From Escherichia coli (GTDB lineage: Bacteria > Pseudomonadota > Gammaproteobacteria > Enterobacterales > Enterobacteriaceae), in NCBI RefSeq assembly GCF_024502345.1, contig NZ_JALDNN010000001.1: a stretch of 64,000 bases of DNA; one strand, written 5' to 3'. The notes under the pieces are model-generated. The model worked only from the letters and a program-made list of their open reading frames with translations, was not told the origin of the DNA and did no database searches. Made by a program: the position numbers and the translations under genes. Every line of letters starts with the position of its first letter. Within the stretch, counting starts at the first letter, position 1. This document shows, piece after piece, positions 36,124 to 46,395 of this stretch.

Positions 36124-37542
36124 ATGGTAAACCTGGTCATAGTTTCACATAGCAGCCGACTGGGAGAAGGTGTCGGTGAATTAGCCCGTCAGATGTTAAT
36201 GAGTGATAATTGTAAAATCGCCATTGCTGCGGGAATTGACGATCCACAAAATCCCATTGGTACCGATGCCGTCAAAGTGATGGAGGCCATCGAATCTGTT
36301 GCCGATGCCGACCATGTGCTGGTCATGATGGATATGGGTAGCGCATTATTGAGTGCTGAAACTGCGCTGGAATTGCTGGCTCCCGAGATCGCCGCAAAAG
36401 TACGTTTGTGTGCTGCGCCGTTGGTCGAAGGTACACTGGCAGCAACGGTCAGCGCGGCCTCGGGTGCGGATATCGACAAAGTTATCTTTGACGCCATGCA
36501 TGCGCTGGAAGCCAAACGTGAACAACTGGGTTTACCGTCCTCCGACACTGAAATCTCTGACTCATGTCCTGCGTACGATGAAGAAGCCCGTTCTCTGGCG
36601 GTGGTCATAAAGAACCGTAACGGCCTGCATGTACGTCCAGCCTCCCGGCTGGTTTATACCTTATCGACATTTAATGCCGATATGTTGCTGGAGAAAAACG
36701 GCAAATGCGTCACACCGGAGAGTATTAACCAGATTGCGTTACTACAAGTTCGCTATAACGATACGCTGCGCCTGATTGCGAAAGGGCCAGAAGCTGAAGA
36801 GGCACTGATCGCTTTCCGTCAGCTGGCTGAAGATAACTTTGGTGAAACGGAGGAAGTTGCTCCACCTACTCTGCGTCCCGTTCCGCCTGTTTCGGGTAAA
36901 GCCTTTTATTATCAACCGGTTTTATGTACGGTACAGGCCAAATCAACCCTGACCGTGGAAGAAGAACAAGAACGATTACGCCAGGCCATTGACTTCACGT
37001 TATTAGATCTGATGACGTTAACAGCGAAAGCAGAAGCCAGCGGGCTTGACGATATTGCCGCAATCTTTTCTGGTCACCATACACTGTTAGATGATCCGGA
37101 ACTGCTGGCGGCGGCAAGCGAACTCCTTCAGCACGAACATTGCACGGCAGAATATGCCTGGCAGCAAGTTCTTAAAGAACTTAGCCAGCAATACCAGCAA
37201 CTGGATGATGAATATCTACAAGCTCGCTATATTGATGTGGACGATCTTCTGCATCGCACCCTGGTCCACCTGACCCAAACGAAAGAAGAACTCCCGCAGT
37301 TTAACTCGCCAACTATTCTACTGGCGGAGAACATTTATCCCTCCGCAGTACTGCAACTGGATCCGGCGGTTGTAAAAGGTATCTGCCTTAGCGCCGGAAG
37401 TCCGGTATCCCACAGCGCCCTGATCGCCCGTGAACTGGGGATTGGCTGGATTTGCCAGCAGGGTGAGAAACTGTATGCGATACAACCAGAAGAAAAGCTA
37501 ACGCTGGACGTTAAAACGCAACGTTTCAACCATCAGAGTTAA
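36124..37542 (+). CDS. dhaM: Dihydroxyacetone kinase phosphotransferase DhaM subunit
   Basis: ORF 36118-37542; EIIA-like, HPr-like and EI-like segments. Confidence 0.9.
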   Translation: MVNLVIVSHSSRLGEGVGELARQMLMSDNCKIAIAAGIDDPQNPIGTDAVKVMEAIESVADADHVLVMMDMGSALLSAETALELLAPEIAAKVRLCAAPLVEGTLAATVSAASGADIDKVIFDAMHALEAKREQLGLPSSDTEISDSCPAYDEEARSLAVVIKNRNGLHVRPASRLVYTLSTFNADMLLEKNGKCVTPESINQIALLQVRYNDTLRLIAKGPEAEEALIAFRQLAEDNFGETEEVAPPTLRPVPPVSGKAFYYQPVLCTVQAKSTLTVEEEQERLRQAIDFTLLDLMTLTAKAEASGLDDIAAIFSGHHTLLDDPELLAAASELLQHEHCTAEYAWQQVLKELSQQYQQLDDEYLQARYIDVDDLLHRTLVHLTQTKEELPQFNSPTILLAENIYPSAVLQLDPAVVKGICLSAGSPVSHSALIARELGIGWICQQGEKLYAIQPEEKLTLDVKTQRFNHQS

Positions 37543-37861
37543 ACCACCGTTCGGATGGCATCGTTCTGATGTCGTCCGGCAATTTACTCAGCACTAATGG
37601 TTTTTAACTACCTGTTATATTTTTCACCAATTTATGATGATTTTTCTTCGCTAATCACGAACCCAACGCCGCTGGCTGGCTAATAAACAGACGTTATTTG
37701 ATCACTCTTTTTCGCCGTTATTTATCCCTTTAATTCCCTTTTCTAAAATGCCTGACAGTTCGCAGAATGAGATTTCGATCATGCAGCTAGTGCGATCCTG
37801 AACTAAGGTTTTCTGATACTTGAATACCGTTTTATTCGGTTTCGCCTAAGGAGAATGATTG

Positions 37862-39559
37862 ATGAAATCCCCCGCACCTTCTCGCCCGCAAAAAATGGCG
37901 TTAATTCCAGCCTGCATCTTTTTGTGTTTCGCTGCGCTATCGGTGCAGGCAGAAGAAACACCGGTAACGCCACAGCCGCCTGATATTTTATTAGGGCCGC
38001 TGTTTAATGATGTGCAAAACGCCAAGCTTTTTCCGGACCAAAAAACCTTTGCCGATGCCGTGCCGAACAGCGATCCGCTGATGATCCTTGCTGATTATCG
38101 GATGCAGCAAAACCAGAGCGGATTTGATCTGCGCCATTTCGTTAACGTCAATTTCACCCTGCCGAAAGAGGGCGAGAAATATGTTCCGCCAGAGGGGCAG
38201 TCACTGCGCGAACATATTGACGGACTTTGGCCGGTATTAACGCGTTCTACCGAAAACACCGAAAAATGGGATTCTCTGTTACCGCTGCCGGAACCTTATG
38301 TCGTGCCAGGCGGACGTTTTCGCGAGGTATATTACTGGGACAGTTACTTCACCATGTTAGGACTTGCCGAAAGCGGTCACTGGGATAAAGTCGCGGATAT
38401 GGTGGCCAATTTTGCTCATGAAATAGACACTTACGGTCATATTCCCAACGGCAACCGCAGTTACTATTTAAGCCGCTCGCAACCGCCCTTCTTTGCCCTG
38501 ATGGTAGAGTTACTGGCGCAGCATGAAGGCGATGCCGCGTTGAAGCAATACCTGCCGCAAATGCAAAAAGAATATGCTTACTGGATGGACGGTGTTGAAA
38601 ACCTGCAAGCCGGACAACAGGAAAAACGCGTTGTAAAACTTCAGGATGGTACCCTTCTCAACCGCTACTGGGACGATCGCGATACGCCACGACCAGAGTC
38701 ATGGGTGGAAGATATTGCCACCGCCAAAAGCAATCCGAATCGACCTGCCACTGAAATTTACCGCGACTTGCGCTCTGCCGCTGCGTCTGGCTGGGATTTC
38801 AGCTCGCGCTGGATGGACAACCCGCAGCAGTTAAATACCATACGCACCACCAGCATCGTACCGGTCGATCTGAACAGCCTGATGTTTAAAATGGAAAAAA
38901 TTCTCGCCCGCGCCAGCAAAGTTGCCGGAGATAACGCGATGGCAAACCAGTACGAAACGCTGGCAAATGCCCGTCAAAAAGGGATCGAAAAATACCTGTG
39001 GAACGATCAACAAGGCTGGTATGCCGATTACGACCTGAAAAGTCATAAAGTGCGCAATCAGTTAACCGCTGCCGCCCTGTTCCCGCTGTACGTCAATGCG
39101 GCAGCGAAAGATCGCGCCAGCAAAATGGCGACGGCGACGAAAACACATCTGCTGCAACCCGGCGGCCTGAACACCACGTCGGTGAAAAGTGGGCAACAAT
39201 GGGATGCGCCAAATGGTTGGGCACCGTTGCAGTGGATCGCGACAGAAGGATTACAAAACTACGGGCAAAAAGAGGTGGCGATGGACATTAGCTGGCACTT
39301 CCTGACCAATGTTCAGCACACCTATGACCGCGAGAAAAAGCTGGTGGAAAAGTATGATGTCAGCACCACCGGAACGGGGGGCGGCGGTGGCGAATATCCA
39401 TTACAGGATGGCTTTGGCTGGACCAATGGCGTGACGCTGAAAATGCTGGATTTGATCTGCCCGAAAGAGCAACCGTGTGACAATGTTCCGGCGACGCGTC
39501 CACTCAGTGAATCAACAACACAGCCGGTAAAACAAAAAGAGGCGGAACCTACGCCTTAA
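37862..39559 (+). CDS. treA: Periplasmic trehalase
   Basis: ORF 37859-39559; signal peptide and glycoside hydrolase 37 motifs. Confidence 0.95.
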
Positions 39560-39563
39560 CTTT

Positions 39564-39589
39564 GCTGTATATCGAGGCTGTATATCGAG
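39564..39589. repeat. Perfect tandem duplication of 13-bp unit GCTGTATATCGAG
   Basis: Two adjacent identical 13-mers immediately after the treA stop. Confidence 0.9.
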
Positions 39590-39630
39590 CAATGCCATTA
39601 TGTGCATAAAATTGGCATTGCTCTTTTTTC
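39589..39630 (+). terminator. Rho-independent terminator after treA
   Basis: GCAATGCCA...TGGCATTGC hairpin followed by CTCTTTTTT. Confidence 0.7.
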
Positions 39631-39901
39631 GCCACGAAATGCCCCCCACTCTACGGTCTATGCCTTTATTTTCTTTTATTAGAGAAGATTTTAATTTTAT
39701 TTTATCAATTTGTTAATCATTACACCTCTATTTATATTTTTCGCCACTCCGCCATTCTCCCTGACAATTTTCTTGTGGAACAAAGTGTTATTTAAGCAAC
39801 AAGCAAATCACTCTGTCTCTTTAGACAAATTTTGACATCAAACATGATTTTTTCGATATATATGTAAATATATAGCGGTTTTAATTATCAGGATATAACT
39901 T

Positions 39902-40924
39902 ATGTCACTAACCAGACGGAGGTTTACACAGATTCTTGCGTCGACGTTGTTCCTGCATCATCTGCCTTCTTTTGCACAATCAGTCAAATTCTGGGCCTCA
40001 CTGACGCTTCCCGAAGCCCAAAACATTACACGCATCGTCAGCGCAGGTGCGCCCGCCGATTTGCTATTGCTGGCTGTCGCGCCAGAAAAAATGGTCGGTT
40101 TTTCCTCTTTTGATTTTGCCCGTCAGGCATTAATTCCATTGCCAGAGCACATTCGCCAGTTACCCAGGCTGGGACGACTCGCCGGGCGCGCCAGCACACT
40201 CTCGCTGGAAGGGCTTATGGCGTTACATCCCGATTTGGTCGTTGATTGCGGCAATACGGATGAAACCTGGATCTCCCAGGCACGGCAGGTTAGCGAACAG
40301 ACACAAATACCCTGGTTATTGCTTAACGGGAAACTGGCGCAATCAGCAGAACAGTTAACAACGCTTGGCAAAACGTTAGGCGAAGAGCATCGCGCCGCAG
40401 AACAAGCCAATCTCGCCAGCCGCTTCGTTGGTGAAGCTCAGGCATTCGCCGCCTCACCCGCCGCTAACCTCCGCTTTTATGCTGCGCGCGGTCCTCGAGG
40501 GCTGGAAACGGGCTTAAAGGGTTCGTTGCATACCGAGGCGGCGGAATTATTAGGTTTGCACAACGTCGCGCAAATAGCCGATCGCCACGGCCTGACACAG
40601 GTTTCCATGGAAAATCTCCTGCGCTGGCAGCCGGATATTATTCTGGTTCAGGAGGCCGTTACTGCAGATTTTATTCGTCGTGATCCTCTCTGGCATGGCG
40701 TGAAAGCCGTTGCGGAACAACGCATCTTATTTTTAAGTGGCTTGCCCTTTGGCTGGCTGGATGCCCCACCGGGAATCAACCGTCTTCTGGGATTACGCAG
40801 ACTTCACGCCTGGCTGGATCCCGCCATCAATCGCCAGTTTAAAAGTGACATGCAGCATTACGCCCAACTGTTCTGGCATTGTTCACTCAGTGACGCCGAC
40901 TATCAAAAATTGGTGGCGAGCTAA
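39902..40924 (+). CDS. Periplasmic substrate-binding protein of a siderophore/cobalamin-type ABC importer, with twin-arginine-like signal (LTRRRFTQ)
   Basis: 340-aa ORF; AGGA RBS 8 nt upstream; signal peptide followed by a FecB/FhuD/BtuF-like domain; first gene of a tightly coupled operon. Confidence 0.8.
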   Translation: MSLTRRRFTQILASTLFLHHLPSFAQSVKFWASLTLPEAQNITRIVSAGAPADLLLLAVAPEKMVGFSSFDFARQALIPLPEHIRQLPRLGRLAGRASTLSLEGLMALHPDLVVDCGNTDETWISQARQVSEQTQIPWLLLNGKLAQSAEQLTTLGKTLGEEHRAAEQANLASRFVGEAQAFAASPAANLRFYAARGPRGLETGLKGSLHTEAAELLGLHNVAQIADRHGLTQVSMENLLRWQPDIILVQEAVTADFIRRDPLWHGVKAVAEQRILFLSGLPFGWLDAPPGINRLLGLRRLHAWLDPAINRQFKSDMQHYAQLFWHCSLSDADYQKLVAS

Positions 40925-41922
40925 TGAGAATCGTAAACGGATGTATTTTGCTGCTGGCAGCTATCAGTATCACTTTTGCCGCCGTAAGTGGGGCTTATCA
41001 TCTCGATATGCAGCAACTGCTGGCGCTAATTCTTCGTCAAGAAAATGTTCCTGTGCAGGAACAAATTGTCTTCTGGCAAATCCGCGTGCCGCGTATTCTT
41101 GCTGCGCTGTTACTGGGCGCGGCGCTGTTACTGGGCGCGGCGCTGGCAGGAGCCGGAACCACTTATCAGGGAATGTTGCGTAATCCCTTAGTTTCACCGG
41201 ATATTTTAGGCGTCTCCGCCGGTGCCGGACTTGGTGCCTGCGCGGCAATCCTGTGGGGATTATCCATTGTTTACATCCAGCTGTACGCATTTTGCGGCGG
41301 GCTGATGGTGGTCGCGGGCGTCTGGTTGATTACGCGTCGGGTGACCCGCCACGATCCGATCTTAACCCTGGTGCTGGTAGGCATTGCGTTAGGAACGTTG
41401 TGCGGAGCGGGGATATCGCTAATTAAAACGCTGGCCGATCCTTACACCCAGTTACCGTCAATTACCTTCTGGTTGCTGGGGGGACTGTCCACCGTGACCT
41501 TACGCGATCTCTGCTATGCTGCACCGATCATTCTCATTGGCTCCTTGCCCCTGTTTTTTCTCCGCTGGCGCATGAATTTACTCACGCTTTCCGACGACGA
41601 AGCCCGTTCGCTGGGACTGAACGTGACGCGTCTGCGCTTTGGATTGATTGTCTGCGCCACACTAATCACCGCCAGTACGGTAGCAATAGCGGGCATAATT
41701 GGTTGGGTCGGCCTGGTCGTTCCGCACATTGCCCGCTTGTTGACCGGTCATAACCATCAGCAGCTGTTGCCCATGGCAATGTGTACTGGCGCGATTCTGC
41801 TCCTGCTGACCGATACGCTGGCACGCAGCATTGGAACAACAGAAATCCCACTTGGCATTCTGACCGCTTTTGTTGGCGCACCGTTTTTCCTGCTTTTGTT
41901 GTTACGCGGAGGTCGCCAGTGA
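40924..41922 (+). CDS. FecCD/BtuC-family ABC permease
   Basis: 332-aa polytopic ORF with C-terminal GAPFF signature; start overlaps upstream stop (TAATG). Confidence 0.85.
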   Translation: MRIVNGCILLLAAISITFAAVSGAYHLDMQQLLALILRQENVPVQEQIVFWQIRVPRILAALLLGAALLLGAALAGAGTTYQGMLRNPLVSPDILGVSAGAGLGACAAILWGLSIVYIQLYAFCGGLMVVAGVWLITRRVTRHDPILTLVLVGIALGTLCGAGISLIKTLADPYTQLPSITFWLLGGLSTVTLRDLCYAAPIILIGSLPLFFLRWRMNLLTLSDDEARSLGLNVTRLRFGLIVCATLITASTVAIAGIIGWVGLVVPHIARLLTGHNHQQLLPMAMCTGAILLLLTDTLARSIGTTEIPLGILTAFVGAPFFLLLLLRGGRQ

Positions 41923-42677
41923 CTTTGCTTGCCGTCCGTCATGCGTCTCTGGGTTACTCCCGCCATCCAGTGCTACGCGACGTGTCCTTCACCCTGTCGC
42001 AAGGAACAATTTGTTGTCTGCTTGGCGCGAATGGTTGCGGCAAAACCACACTCATGCGCTCCATTCTTGGCGTTATACCGTTATTAAAAGGCGAGGTCTT
42101 ACTGGATAGCCTCCCTGTGCAGACACTCAGCCATCGCCAGCGCGCGCAGGCTATTGCCTGGGTGCCGCAGGCGCACGACGGTATTTTTGCTTTTAGTGTG
42201 CTGGATATGGTGTTGATGGGCCTGGCCCCCACCATAGGCACTTTTTCCGTTCCCGGTAAGCAAGAACGCCTGAAAGCCACGGAGCAACTGGAAAAGCTGG
42301 GCATTTTGCATCTGGCGGCACGACGCTGGAATACGCTTAGCGGCGGTGAACGTCAGCTGGCTTTAATCGCCCGTGCACTCGTCCAGCAACCGCGCTTGTT
42401 GTTACTGGATGAGCCTGCCTCCAGCCTCGATTTTGGTCATCAGATCCAACTACTGGACACGCTGGCGCAGCTCAAAAATAACGGCATGACAATGTTAATG
42501 TCGACTCATCATCCGCTCCATGCCAACGCCATTGCCGACAGCATTATCCAGGTAGAGCCAGATGGACGAGTAACACAAGGCTTACCGACCGAACAGTTAA
42601 CAACGAACAAACTGGCTGCCCTGTATCGGGTTTCTGCCGACCAGATTCATCATCACCTCTCTGCAATTAGCCACTAA
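41919..42677 (+). CDS. ABC transporter ATP-binding protein (FecE/BtuD-like)
   Basis: GTG start overlapping the permease stop (GTGA); Walker A GANGCGKTT, signature LSGGERQ, Walker B LLLDEP; 252 aa. Confidence 0.85.
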   Translation: MTLLAVRHASLGYSRHPVLRDVSFTLSQGTICCLLGANGCGKTTLMRSILGVIPLLKGEVLLDSLPVQTLSHRQRAQAIAWVPQAHDGIFAFSVLDMVLMGLAPTIGTFSVPGKQERLKATEQLEKLGILHLAARRWNTLSGGERQLALIARALVQQPRLLLLDEPASSLDFGHQIQLLDTLAQLKNNGMTMLMSTHHPLHANAIADSIIQVEPDGRVTQGLPTEQLTTNKLAALYRVSADQIHHHLSAISH

Positions 42678-42686
42678 GGAAAAATC

Positions 42687-43499
42687 ATGCTCATTGATGA
42701 TATTGATTTTGCAGACCTCTACCTGCAGCAACTCAAACTGGCCCACCGCACAGAAAAAACGCCGGATCACTGGGATCAACGGGCGGAAAAAATGGCGGAA
42801 AATTGCGCCTCGCCTACGGACAGCTACCTGCAACAACTGATCGCTAAAATTGACCTACAAGGCGCTCAGACCTTATTCGATATGGGCTGCGGACCGGGTA
42901 CCGTATCGCTGGCGCTGGCTGACAAACTCACGACGATTTATGGCGTTGATTACAGTCAGGGGATGCTGAACGTTGCCGCCCGTCGCGCCGCCTCGCTGAA
43001 GGCAGACAATGTCCACTTGATCCAGCGCGCCTGGGAAGAGGACTGGAGTGACCTGCCACGCTGCGATATTGCCGTGGCTTCCCGCTCCACTCTGGTGGCT
43101 GATATGCGCCAGGCAATGAGCAAACTGAATAATCAGGCACGGCTTCGCGTCTATACGACTCATCTGGTCAGCACCTCGTTCGTCTCTCCAGCCATTCAGC
43201 GGGCGGCTGGTCGGGAAGTGATCGAATTACCCAACTATATCTTTGCGCTCAACGTCCTGTATCAGATGGGAATTTATGCCCACGTTGATTTTATCCGTGG
43301 ACAAAATTGCCAACAGGATAACAGCACCTGGGAACGTTTTGAGCAGAACGTCAGCTGGAGTCTTGGCGCGCTTAACGACGATGAGCGTGAGCGGTTATAT
43401 CACTGGTATCAACAACAAGATGCTCGTGCCCTCGCCCCTGCCAGCCGCGACTGGGCGCTCATCTGGTGGGATAGCGTACCGCAGGAGGCACTGCGATGA
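42687..43499 (+). CDS. Class I SAM-dependent methyltransferase
   Basis: 270-aa ORF with AAGGA RBS and SAM-binding motif I (LFDMGCGPGTVSLALA). Confidence 0.75.
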   Translation: MLIDDIDFADLYLQQLKLAHRTEKTPDHWDQRAEKMAENCASPTDSYLQQLIAKIDLQGAQTLFDMGCGPGTVSLALADKLTTIYGVDYSQGMLNVAARRAASLKADNVHLIQRAWEEDWSDLPRCDIAVASRSTLVADMRQAMSKLNNQARLRVYTTHLVSTSFVSPAIQRAAGREVIELPNYIFALNVLYQMGIYAHVDFIRGQNCQQDNSTWERFEQNVSWSLGALNDDERERLYHWYQQQDARALAPASRDWALIWWDSVPQEALR

Positions 43500-44350
43500 T
43501 TTTCCTTTCTCAGGCACAAATCGATGCGTTACTTCTGGAAGATATCCAGGGCGGTGACCTGACTACGAGAGCATTAAATATTGGACACCAGCATGGCTAT
43601 ATAGAGTTTTTTCTCCGTCAGGGCGGCTGCGTCAGCGGCGTTTCTGTTGCGTGTAAGATGTTAACTACGCTGGGATTAACTATTGATGACGCGGTCAGCG
43701 ACGGTTCACAAGCGAACGCGGGTCAACGGCTAATCCGTGCGCAGGGTAATGCCGCAGCACTTCATCAGGGATGGAAGGCAGTCCAGAATGTGCTGGAGTG
43801 GAGTTGCGGTGTTTCTGATTATCTCGATCAAATGCTGGCGTTACTTCGTGAACGTTATCCTGATGGCAATATCGCCTGCACCCGAAAAGCAATTCCGGGC
43901 ACCCGCTTACTGGCCTCGCAGGCAATTCTGGCTGCCGGAGGACTGATTCATCGTGCCGGATGTGCGGAAACCATATTATTGTTTGCCAACCACCGCCATT
44001 TTCTTCCTGACAATCAGGACTGGTCAGGCGCAATCGATCAGTTACGTCGCCACGCACCCGAGAAGAAAATTGTTGTTGAAGCCGACACGCCGAAAGAGGC
44101 AATCGCCGCGTTACGCGCGCAACCTGACGTACTTCAGCTCGACAAATTTAGTCCGCAACAGGCAACTGAAATTGCGCAAATAGCGCCGTCGCTGGCTCCC
44201 CACTGCACGCTGGCTCTGACCGGCGGAATTAATCTGACGACACTCAAAAATTACCTCGACTGCGGCATTCGCCTTTTTATTACCTCCGCGCCTTATTACG
44301 CGGCACCGGCTGACATTAAAGTCAGTCTGCAACCCGCAGCCTCTATTTAA
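43496..44350 (+). CDS. ModD-like protein (NadC/quinolinate phosphoribosyltransferase fold family)
   Basis: 284-aa ORF; AGGAGG RBS; start overlaps the methyltransferase stop (ATGA). Confidence 0.65.
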   Translation: MIFLSQAQIDALLLEDIQGGDLTTRALNIGHQHGYIEFFLRQGGCVSGVSVACKMLTTLGLTIDDAVSDGSQANAGQRLIRAQGNAAALHQGWKAVQNVLEWSCGVSDYLDQMLALLRERYPDGNIACTRKAIPGTRLLASQAILAAGGLIHRAGCAETILLFANHRHFLPDNQDWSGAIDQLRRHAPEKKIVVEADTPKEAIAALRAQPDVLQLDKFSPQQATEIAQIAPSLAPHCTLALTGGINLTTLKNYLDCGIRLFITSAPYYAAPADIKVSLQPAASI

Positions 44351-44375
44351 TTCTTTGTTAAACGGAATTTATTCT

Positions 44376-46346
44376 ATGAGACTCAAAAAACGTTATCTCT
44401 GCACAGCATTATCACTTGCCTTTACCCAGCAGGCCGTAGCGGCTCAGGAGAGCGACACGCTGACCGTATGGTCCAGTCCGGTATCATCGACGACGACCAC
44501 CGTTCTCGATCAACCCACCATGAAGGCCCTGGATAAACAGAATGTCGCTCAGGCATTAAGTGTCGTCCCCGGCGTGGTGCTGCAAAAGTCAGGCAGCCGC
44601 AACGAAGAACAGGTAAAAGTTCGTGGCTTTGATAGTCGGCAGGTGCCGGTCTATTTCGACGGTGTGCCCATTTATGTTCCCTATGACGGCAACCTCGATC
44701 TGGCGCGGATTCTGACCAACAATCTGGGGGCAGTCGAAGTTTCCAAAGGGTATTCGTCGCTGCTTCAGGGGCCTAATCAGATGGGCGGAGCCATTAATAT
44801 CACCACCCAGAAGCCATCAAAACCTCTGGAAGCAAATCTGGGATATCGCCAGGGATGGAGCCGTAGCCAGGACAATGCCTACGATATGCATGCTTCATTT
44901 GCCGCCAGTAGCGATCTGGGGTATTTGCAAGTCAGCGGTAGCCAGCTAAAGCAGGATTTTCTCGGCCTGCCGCATGGTGTAAATAATGATATTGCAGGCA
45001 AACACGGCAAGATGATTAATTCATCGGCTGATGATAAACGCGGCATTGTGAAGCTCGGATTTACACCACGTGAAAACGATGAATACACACTGACTTACAT
45101 TAAGCAGGATGGTGAAAAAGATAACCCGCCATACAGCGGAAATAGTGGTCAAAAATCACGCTACTGGCAGTGGCCAGAGTATGACAAAGAAAGTTTTTAT
45201 TATCAGGGAACGACCCAACTAAACGATCGTTTTACCCTGAAAAGTCGGCTGTATCGCGACACCTTTGAAAATACGCTGATGATGTACAACTCGCTGGCTG
45301 ATTTGAAAAATAAAAAAGGCAGCTACAGCCATTATTCCGATTACAGCGACGGTGCCGGATTACAACTGGCAGCCGATGTGCGTGAAAACGATCTGCTGTC
45401 GTTTGCCGTTAACTGGAAAGATGACGTACACCGGGAAAAAGGTGCGCCGCACGCCGCTTACGATCGCTATGAAGATCGTACCTGGTCGCTCGCCAGTGAA
45501 TATCAATGGGCTGCTGCCGATAATGTCGATGTCGTGGCTGGAATCAGCTATGACTGGCGCGATAGCGTAGAAGCGAAAAAACACGAGAAAGATGACAGCA
45601 TCACCCATTATGACGACAACAATCAGTCAGCTTTTAACTGGCAAGTGATGGGGAAATACCACTTTGCCAATGAAGACACGCTGGCGCTTTCGTACTATGA
45701 CCGCACACGCTTTCCGACGCTGAAAGAACGCTATACCACATCCAAACCTGCGTATAACCAGATAGCGATTGTTAACCCGCAGCTCAAGCCGGAACGCGCT
45801 CGCGGGGTGGATTTAACCTGGAATGGTGCCTTCACGCGCGACTGGGGATTTGAGGTCAGCGTTTACTATAACCGGGTGAGTGATGCCATCCTCTCGCACA
45901 ATATCGATGCCGATACCATTCAAAATCAGAACAGCGGCACGGTGGATTACAGCGGTCTGGATGCCGGTATTAAGGGGAAAATCAGCAATATACTGGATGT
46001 AGGATTGAGCTACGCCCTGATCCACGCTGACGCCAAACGCAAAGACATCGGCAAGATAACCGATCTGCCAACGCAGACAATGACCGCATGGATGACTCTC
46101 AAACCGTGGGAGCCGTTAAGCGTAACGCTGTCGGAAGAGGCGCGTTCCTCCAGCTACAGCAACAGTGACGGTTCACAAAAAGCCGCCGGTTTTGCGGTGA
46201 CCCACATTCGAGCCGATTACACCTTAGGTCATGGCTTCAGCGTCAATGCGTCGGTCAATAACCTGTTTGATACCCAATATGCCTACAGTGAAGGGTTTAT
46301 TGAAGAAGGCCGCAATTTCTGGGCAGGTGTCGAGTATACGTTCTGA
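44376..46346 (+). CDS. TonB-dependent outer-membrane receptor
   Basis: ORF 44355-46346; likely start at ATG 44376; signal peptide, TonB-box-like DTLTVW, plug domain, C-terminal ...GVEYTF. Confidence 0.85.
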   Translation: MRLKKRYLCTALSLAFTQQAVAAQESDTLTVWSSPVSSTTTTVLDQPTMKALDKQNVAQALSVVPGVVLQKSGSRNEEQVKVRGFDSRQVPVYFDGVPIYVPYDGNLDLARILTNNLGAVEVSKGYSSLLQGPNQMGGAINITTQKPSKPLEANLGYRQGWSRSQDNAYDMHASFAASSDLGYLQVSGSQLKQDFLGLPHGVNNDIAGKHGKMINSSADDKRGIVKLGFTPRENDEYTLTYIKQDGEKDNPPYSGNSGQKSRYWQWPEYDKESFYYQGTTQLNDRFTLKSRLYRDTFENTLMMYNSLADLKNKKGSYSHYSDYSDGAGLQLAADVRENDLLSFAVNWKDDVHREKGAPHAAYDRYEDRTWSLASEYQWAAADNVDVVAGISYDWRDSVEAKKHEKDDSITHYDDNNQSAFNWQVMGKYHFANEDTLALSYYDRTRFPTLKERYTTSKPAYNQIAIVNPQLKPERARGVDLTWNGAFTRDWGFEVSVYYNRVSDAILSHNIDADTIQNQNSGTVDYSGLDAGIKGKISNILDVGLSYALIHADAKRKDIGKITDLPTQTMTAWMTLKPWEPLSVTLSEEARSSSYSNSDGSQKAAGFAVTHIRADYTLGHGFSVNASVNNLFDTQYAYSEGFIEEGRNFWAGVEYTF

Positions 46347-46351
46347 TGTGA

Positions 46352-46384
46352 AAGCGGATAGCGGCATCTGTATCGCTATCCGCC
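46352..46384. terminator. Bidirectional terminator hairpin between the receptor gene and ymgE
   Basis: Inverted repeat GCGGATAGCG-loop-CGCTATCCGC between convergent stops. Confidence 0.55.
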
Positions 46385-46395
46385 TTATGAAAATC

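Follow-up and report, generated by a model that had tools for sequence, protein, structure and literature searches.

In a 64,000-nucleotide stretch of Escherichia coli DNA (contig NZ_JALDNN010000001.1; hereafter the window), an ABC permease gene carries an 18-bp sequence repeated head to tail within its reading frame, which raises the questions of how this duplication arose and whether the transporter can work with it. The original prediction was that a recent slipped-strand event had added six residues to a transmembrane helix and could alter or inactivate the permease. Direct reading of the sequence confirmed that the perfect unit GCGCTGTTACTGGGCGCG is doubled back to back at 41104–41139. 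With the gene start at 40924, codon 61 begins at 41104, which places the duplication in frame; the doubled-peptide string AALLLGAALLLGAALAGAG that had been given matches the translation. In the protein, W51-Q-I-R54-V-P56-R57-I-L-A60 is followed by ALLLGA at residues 61–66 and again at 67–72, and then by ALAGAGTTY, Q82, GML, R86, and NPL. The coordinates of the repeat and of the surrounding genes are collected in Table 1.

Tandem Repeats Finder reported 41104–41145 with a period of 18, 2.3 copies, 100% matches, and no indels. The true extent of the repeat is 42 bp, and the boundary of the duplication can be placed anywhere within a 6-bp register. This was the top-scoring tandem repeat of the whole window. 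When we searched for the longest run in which each base equals the base p positions further on (p from 6 to 60), the duplication gave a run of 24 bases, and the runner-up in the window gave 13. The longest periodic runs in 20 first-order Markov shuffles were 9–13 bases. Because a run of 24 bases stands against at most 13 in the shuffles, a chance origin of the repeat is excluded.

Table 1 Features of the permease duplication and of the genes around it.
Feature	Coordinates	Strand	Remarks
Periplasmic substrate-binding protein gene	39902..40924	+	340 aa, PF01497, intact
FecCD-family (type II ABC importer, MolB/BtuC-like) permease gene	40924..41922	+	332 aa here vs 326 aa in all other E. coli
Coding segment of transmembrane helix 2 (TM2)	41053..41175	+	Residues 44–84 of the window allele; from AlphaFold2, invariant columns, and HMMER to 2nq2, 7lb8, and 5b57
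Unit copy 1, GCGCTGTTACTGGGCGCG	41104..41121	+	Codons 61–66, ALLLGA; 18-bp gap opposite in single-copy strain 873.10
Unit copy 2, GCGCTGTTACTGGGCGCG	41122..41139	+	Codons 67–72, ALLLGA
Partial third copy, GCGCTG	41140..41145	+	Downstream member of the 6-bp direct-repeat pair (microhomology)
ABC ATPase gene	41919..42677	+	252 aa, intact; start overlaps the permease stop codon
Class I SAM-dependent methyltransferase gene	42687..43499	+	270 aa, intact
ModD gene	43496..44350	+	284 aa; TIGR01334, 501 bits; intact
TonB-dependent outer-membrane receptor gene	44376..46346	+	656 aa, intact; last gene of the islet

The identification of the product as an ABC permease was borne out by Pfam PF01032 (FecCD), which matched with 286.1 bits (cut-off 26.5) over profile positions 2–311 of 311, and by the solved homologues, among which HI1471 (MolB) was the best match (E 8.5e-62), followed in the sequence ranking by FhuB, BhuU, HmuU, and BtuC. 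In Foldseek comparisons, the AlphaFold2 model gave TM-scores of 0.82/0.87 against 2nq2 and 0.79–0.82 against the remaining type II importers (0.82 for both 5b57 and 1l7v). The helix pattern of the single-copy model agrees with the BtuC/MolB-type fold of ten transmembrane helices plus helix 5a. Two overlapping ORFs, 40737–41183 on the plus strand and 40970–41290 on the minus strand, were set aside given the strong support for the FecCD frame. In a search for a named transporter, the permease reached none of the NCBIfam equivalog cut-offs; because of this, it is not BtuC, FecC/D, FepD/G, or FhuB proper.

By sequence and by fold, the closest known system is MolB (HI1471; 2nq2) of the Haemophilus influenzae MolBC-A molybdate/tungstate importer, with ca. 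37% identity in the structural alignment. Both proteins carry the same TM2 motifs, R-x-PR and Q-x3-RNPLV-x-P, whereas TM2 of MolB has the length that is standard in the family, and the alignment leaves a six-residue gap opposite the E. coli duplication. The ModD gene of the E. coli operon (TIGR01334) counts as a further likeness to MolBC-A. In contrast, the E. coli binding protein matched MolA (HI1472) weakly (E 5e-8 over ca. 80 residues, 206–287), its best match being the uncharacterised 4pag (E 8.6e-27), and the E. coli operon adds genes for a methyltransferase and a TonB-dependent receptor. The permease is thus closest to MolB, but given the weak resemblance to MolA and these additional genes, membership of MolBC-A and the substrate are not established.

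As in the operons of type II importers, genes for a cluster-A binding protein (PF01497) and an ABC ATPase adjoin or overlap the permease gene. Together with the methyltransferase, ModD, and TonB-dependent receptor genes, these form a six-gene accessory islet between treA and ymgE/ycgR. The permease gene was found in 2139 of the 5426 complete E. coli genomes, and the islet is missing from ca. 60%. Across 24 kb, the window shared 99.4% identity with the best-matching complete E. coli genomes. A search of 36000–48000 against Rfam for an RNA element or riboswitch near the operon returned no family at the gathering score.

One comparison that the original prediction had proposed was with orthologous permeases, which might all have carried the doubled motif. 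The doubled motif proved to be derived, being present in 0 of the 2138 complete E. coli genomes that have the permease gene and in 0 of 105 homologue representatives. With the 999-bp gene as query, the matches listed in complete E. coli genomes spanned 981 bp; a 171-bp query with the repeat at its centre matched all 2139 records at 80–90% identity, the best at 153/171, which is exactly an 18-bp gap. The 36-mer of the doubled unit was not found among 100,044 GTDB species representatives (one genome per species) or in the JGI metagenomes. None of the 105 full-length representatives, which were drawn from the 120 best homologue clusters and come from genera including Escherichia, Shigella, Yokenella, Klebsiella, Raoultella, Edwardsiella, Providencia, Serratia, and Shewanella, has a six-residue insertion. 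Absence from all of these collections rules out the doubling as an ancestral or shared state.

The printed HMMER alignments of MolB, FhuB (both halves), and BhuU also have a gap of six residues exactly where the extra copy lies. Among homologues in which both motifs are present, the spacing from PR to NP(L/M) was 25 residues in 109 of 110, the sole exception being the singleton P0003 with 27 (an extra AG); it was 31 in the window. The spacing is also 25 in BtuC, MolB, FhuB-N, FhuB-C, and BhuU. The solved relatives share ca. 30–38% identity with the permease. The single-copy parent has the canonical TM2 length of 25 residues from PR to NP, and the window allele misses it. Judged by these alignments, the off-length TM2 is a property of the window allele and not of the permease gene.

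The single-copy sequence, taken from the alignment with strain 873.10 (locus L011, NZ_CP061754.1), reads GCT-GCGCTG-TTACTGGGCGCG-GCGCTG-GCA. The 6-bp GCGCTG direct repeats flank the unit exactly 18 bp apart with 12 nt between them, and the predicted slipped-strand origin is thereby well supported. Two hexamers one unit apart are a textbook substrate of slipped-strand mispairing. During replication, the nascent strand would have slipped back so that the second GCGCTG paired with the first, and 18 bp would have been copied again. From this anatomy we infer a slippage mechanism. The window allele shares with standard microhomology-flanked slippage duplications the perfect head-to-tail copies and, in a close single-copy relative taken as the parental form, the short 6-bp direct repeats one unit apart. 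A hairpin-driven duplication was also considered and rejected; because single-strand DNA folds of both strands and of the single-copy sequence were no more stable than those of shuffled sequences (z = −0.21, 0.39, and 0.31), no hairpin is needed, and plain direct-repeat slippage suffices. Nothing about the mutation goes beyond an ordinary slipped-strand tandem duplication; it adds one more instance to a familiar kind, and it is nearly certain that the duplication is real, derived, and due to slippage. We found no account of an ALLLGA-doubled allele.

Ala, Gly, and Leu codons abound in the duplicated stretch, and other E. coli permease alleles are altered in or beyond it. P0003 has its AG directly after the duplicated stretch, P0005/P0006 have lost 24 residues in frame between AGAG repeats, P0065 lacks 96 residues, and P0072, P0073, P0086, and P0100 have C-terminal frameshifts. 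These alleles suggest a slippage-prone stretch and relaxed selection on the permease in parts of the species. Another perfect tandem repeat, the 13-bp unit GCTGTATATCGAG in two copies at 39564–39589, lies five bases past the treA stop codon in the intergenic region between treA and the binding-protein gene. It is polymorphic, with one copy in L012 and two in the window, L001, L011, L018, and L019; this repeat and the permease duplication, both slippage polymorphisms, lie within 1.6 kb of each other.

The description of the duplication as recent stood in part: it arose within the species, but it is not private to one genome, since at least 24 independent contigs with diverging flanks carry it. 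The exact 332-aa protein was listed in 26 assembly-collection blocks, and we read 24 contigs, from the NCBI isolate assembly GCA_001484235.1 and from ENA and Logan assemblies of different samples. All ten carrier loci that we fetched contained the 36-mer and differed from the window by 0–20 SNPs per ca. 5 kb. In the 5-kb alignment, the carriers differed from each other by 0–18 SNPs and formed one haplotype group. The single-copy strain 873.10 falls inside this group, separated from the window and L001 by 5–7 SNPs per 5 kb, whereas eight other single-copy loci were 35–57 SNPs away. The window has two derived SNPs that most other carriers lack (42240 A and 44125 T), so the duplication predates some diversification. 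The exact parent protein, without the six residues, was listed in 945 blocks, which by this crude block count makes the duplicated allele ca. 3% as common as its parent. Within the permease gene, single-copy haplotypes differed from the window by 1–5 substitutions, which were synonymous in the eight loci chosen for an identical parent protein. A search for a three-copy protein found none on record, and only the one-copy and two-copy states were seen. The confinement of the carriers to one haplotype group is consistent with a single origin, and the allele marks a circulating E. coli haplotype group.

Two carrier contigs showed unusual substitution patterns. The metagenome contig L010 (ENA ERZ507969) has four synonymous differences in the permease gene at positions equivalent to 41538–41676 of the window, two of which match the single-copy haplotypes L012, L016, L017, and L018. 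This pattern could be due to recombination, a chimeric low-coverage assembly (1.9x), or an independent origin; at 1.9x, the contig cannot separate recombination or chimerism from recurrence, and independent origins on different backgrounds were not adopted. In L003 (ENA ERZ19693311), modD has eight substitutions within 36 bp (equivalent to 44108–44143 of the window), seven of them absent from all other compared loci. The cluster resembles a recombined patch or a mistake in the assembly.

The predicted position of the doubled segment in a transmembrane segment was confirmed and could be specified as TM2 from HMMER alignments to solved structures and AlphaFold2 models; that the duplication lies in TM2 is almost certain. 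The helix is bounded by the invariant residues W51, R54, and P56-R57 on one side and Q82 and R86-N87-P88-L89 on the other, and in any register the insertion falls 17–25 residues into it. The six added residues (ALLLGA), which had been correctly announced, amount to ca. 1.7 helical turns in the middle of TM2. By analogy with BtuC, TM2 would run from a periplasmic W-x2-R-x-PR end to a cytoplasmic Q-x3-RNPLVSP end at gate II, an assignment resting on the alignment of Q78, F81, N83, and L85 of BtuC with Q82, L85, N87, and L89 of the window allele. In molecular dynamics simulations of BtuCD, the cytoplasmic end of TM2 lies in a bundle of TM2, TM6, and TM7, and this bundle and a conserved Asn relay the motion of the L-loop to cytoplasmic gate II, which is the loop between TM2 and TM3 (PMC5117765). 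Equivalent interaction networks occur in the crystal structures of MolBC and HmuUV (PMC5117765; PMC4245157).

Codon 85 of the permease (41176–41178) encodes Leu, whereas Phe occupies this position in at least 90% of homologues (GM-F-RNPL). This position corresponds to F81 of BtuC, which hydrogen-bonds the gate II Asn in the published simulations (PMC5117765). Leu85 is common to the single-copy parent allele and the Shigella flexneri-named cluster P0002, and it therefore predates the duplication.

Modelling of the helix, one of the checks proposed at the outset, gave a continuous TM2 for the single-copy form and a broken, low-confidence TM2 for the duplicated form. In the former, TM2 was a continuous 35-residue helix (residues 44–78, pLDDT 83–92) in a model with an overall mean pLDDT of 83.0 and a pTM of 0.84. 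In the latter, built from the same 61-sequence alignment, TM2 was split into helices 44–58 and 66–84 by a non-helical break at 59–65, and pLDDT was below 50 at 59–64 and at the gate II stretch 88–93. The overall mean pLDDT of the duplicated form was 76.8 and its pTM 0.79, values to be read with the caution that AlphaFold is unreliable for mutational effects and that some of the lost confidence stems from the gap in the alignment itself. The Pfam FecCD score fell from 297.6 bits for the single-copy form to 286.1 bits for the duplicated form, a drop of 11.5.

Across the sequences compared, the fixed PR-to-NP spacing indicates a strong constraint on TM2 length. Because this spacing is fixed across the family, the insertion would either shift the invariant ends of TM2 out of register by ca. 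9 Å and 240° or break the helix. The permease would then be misfolded or uncoupled, and the allele would be a loss-of-function or strong hypomorphic one. Given the conserved spacing and the results of the duplicated model, the likeliest consequence is that the permease loses its function or retains little of it, and we consider it probable that the duplication impairs the permease in this way. The locus as a whole is probably best explained as a heritable in-frame slippage duplication that impairs the permease of an accessory importer. An impaired allele would be tolerated since the operon is accessory in E. coli and often degraded, and because the operon is accessory and decaying elsewhere, even a null allele could drift. 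In the single-copy strain 873.10, the binding-protein gene is annotated as frameshifted (L011 4864–5885), which is independent evidence of islet decay in the haplotype group of the duplication. The same strain has an internal stop in ycgV.

A possible but rather unlikely alternative is a tolerated, effectively neutral insertion whose six residues are taken up by a lengthened or more strongly tilted TM2, a slid register, or a local bulge, so that the importer still works. The inserted residues are small and hydrophobic and exactly repeat a helix-compatible sequence, the overall fold is still predicted (TM-score 0.82 to 2nq2), and P0003 carries its two-residue insertion beside the duplication site. 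The allele has moreover been inherited by carriers that differ by as many as 18 SNPs per 5 kb, and the operon shows no secondary decay, its six genes being intact in the window and in those fetched carrier contigs that cover them. A perfect repeat can revert by slippage, yet this one persists, which argues against strong counter-selection; such persistence is equally compatible with retained function. However, the near-invariant spacing of 25 residues, kept even in solved relatives at ca. 30–38% identity, and the model of the duplicated form, in which TM2 breaks and confidence is lost both around the insertion and in the gate II loop, speak against neutrality, as does the rarity of the allele relative to its parent (26 vs 945 blocks). 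Impairment of the permease stays the preferred reading.

It is improbable that the duplication is a selected inactivation of the TonB-dependent receptor/ABC uptake route, for example against a toxic ligand, a colicin, or a phage, or a reversible on/off switch in which slippage back to one copy would reactivate uptake. Such a role would fit the inherent reversibility of a tandem repeat by slippage, the occurrence of the allele in many independent samples, and the further indels in the same Ala/Gly/Leu-rich stretch (the additional AG of P0003 and the 24-residue deletion of P0005/P0006). In contrast to a phase-variable contingency locus, in which a long tract toggles a frame or promoter, the repeat has two units of a length that is a multiple of three, and the reading frame is never switched. 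The states seen are one and two copies, and the carriers form one haplotype cluster, which fits a single origin over recurrent switching. There is also no evidence of selection. With no three-copy product on record, classification as a phase-variable contingency locus or variable-number repeat was rejected.

For the doubled copy, an artefact of sequencing or assembly is conceivable insofar as short tandem repeats occasionally mis-assemble and the window was judged without reads. It is ruled out for practical purposes, because at least 24 independent contigs of varied samples, sources, and contig-naming styles share the same 36-mer and the exact 332-residue protein, and an 18-bp repeat is far below read length.

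Beyond strain-level annotation, the significance of the duplication is small. It marks the permease of an uncharacterised, accessory MolBC-like importer as probably hypomorphic or null, and the 36-mer is a clean marker for one E. coli lineage. Annotation pipelines would call the permease gene intact; if the allele is non-functional, it would be a hidden pseudogene. The allele is also a natural TM2 insertion mutant of a type II ABC importer and could be used to probe the role of TM2 in coupling the L-loop to cytoplasmic gate II.

Elsewhere in the window, a 478-aa leucine-rich-repeat protein (Pfam LRR_4), which may resemble LRR-type secreted effectors, is encoded at 51664–53100 on the plus strand between cvrA and dadX. 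Its gene is intact here and contains an array with a 9-bp period at 52831–52937, and the C-terminus of the protein is acidic and rich in repeats (DLEGLEELEDLDDL...). In strain 873.10, a close relative, the corresponding gene is truncated and lies beside an IS1.
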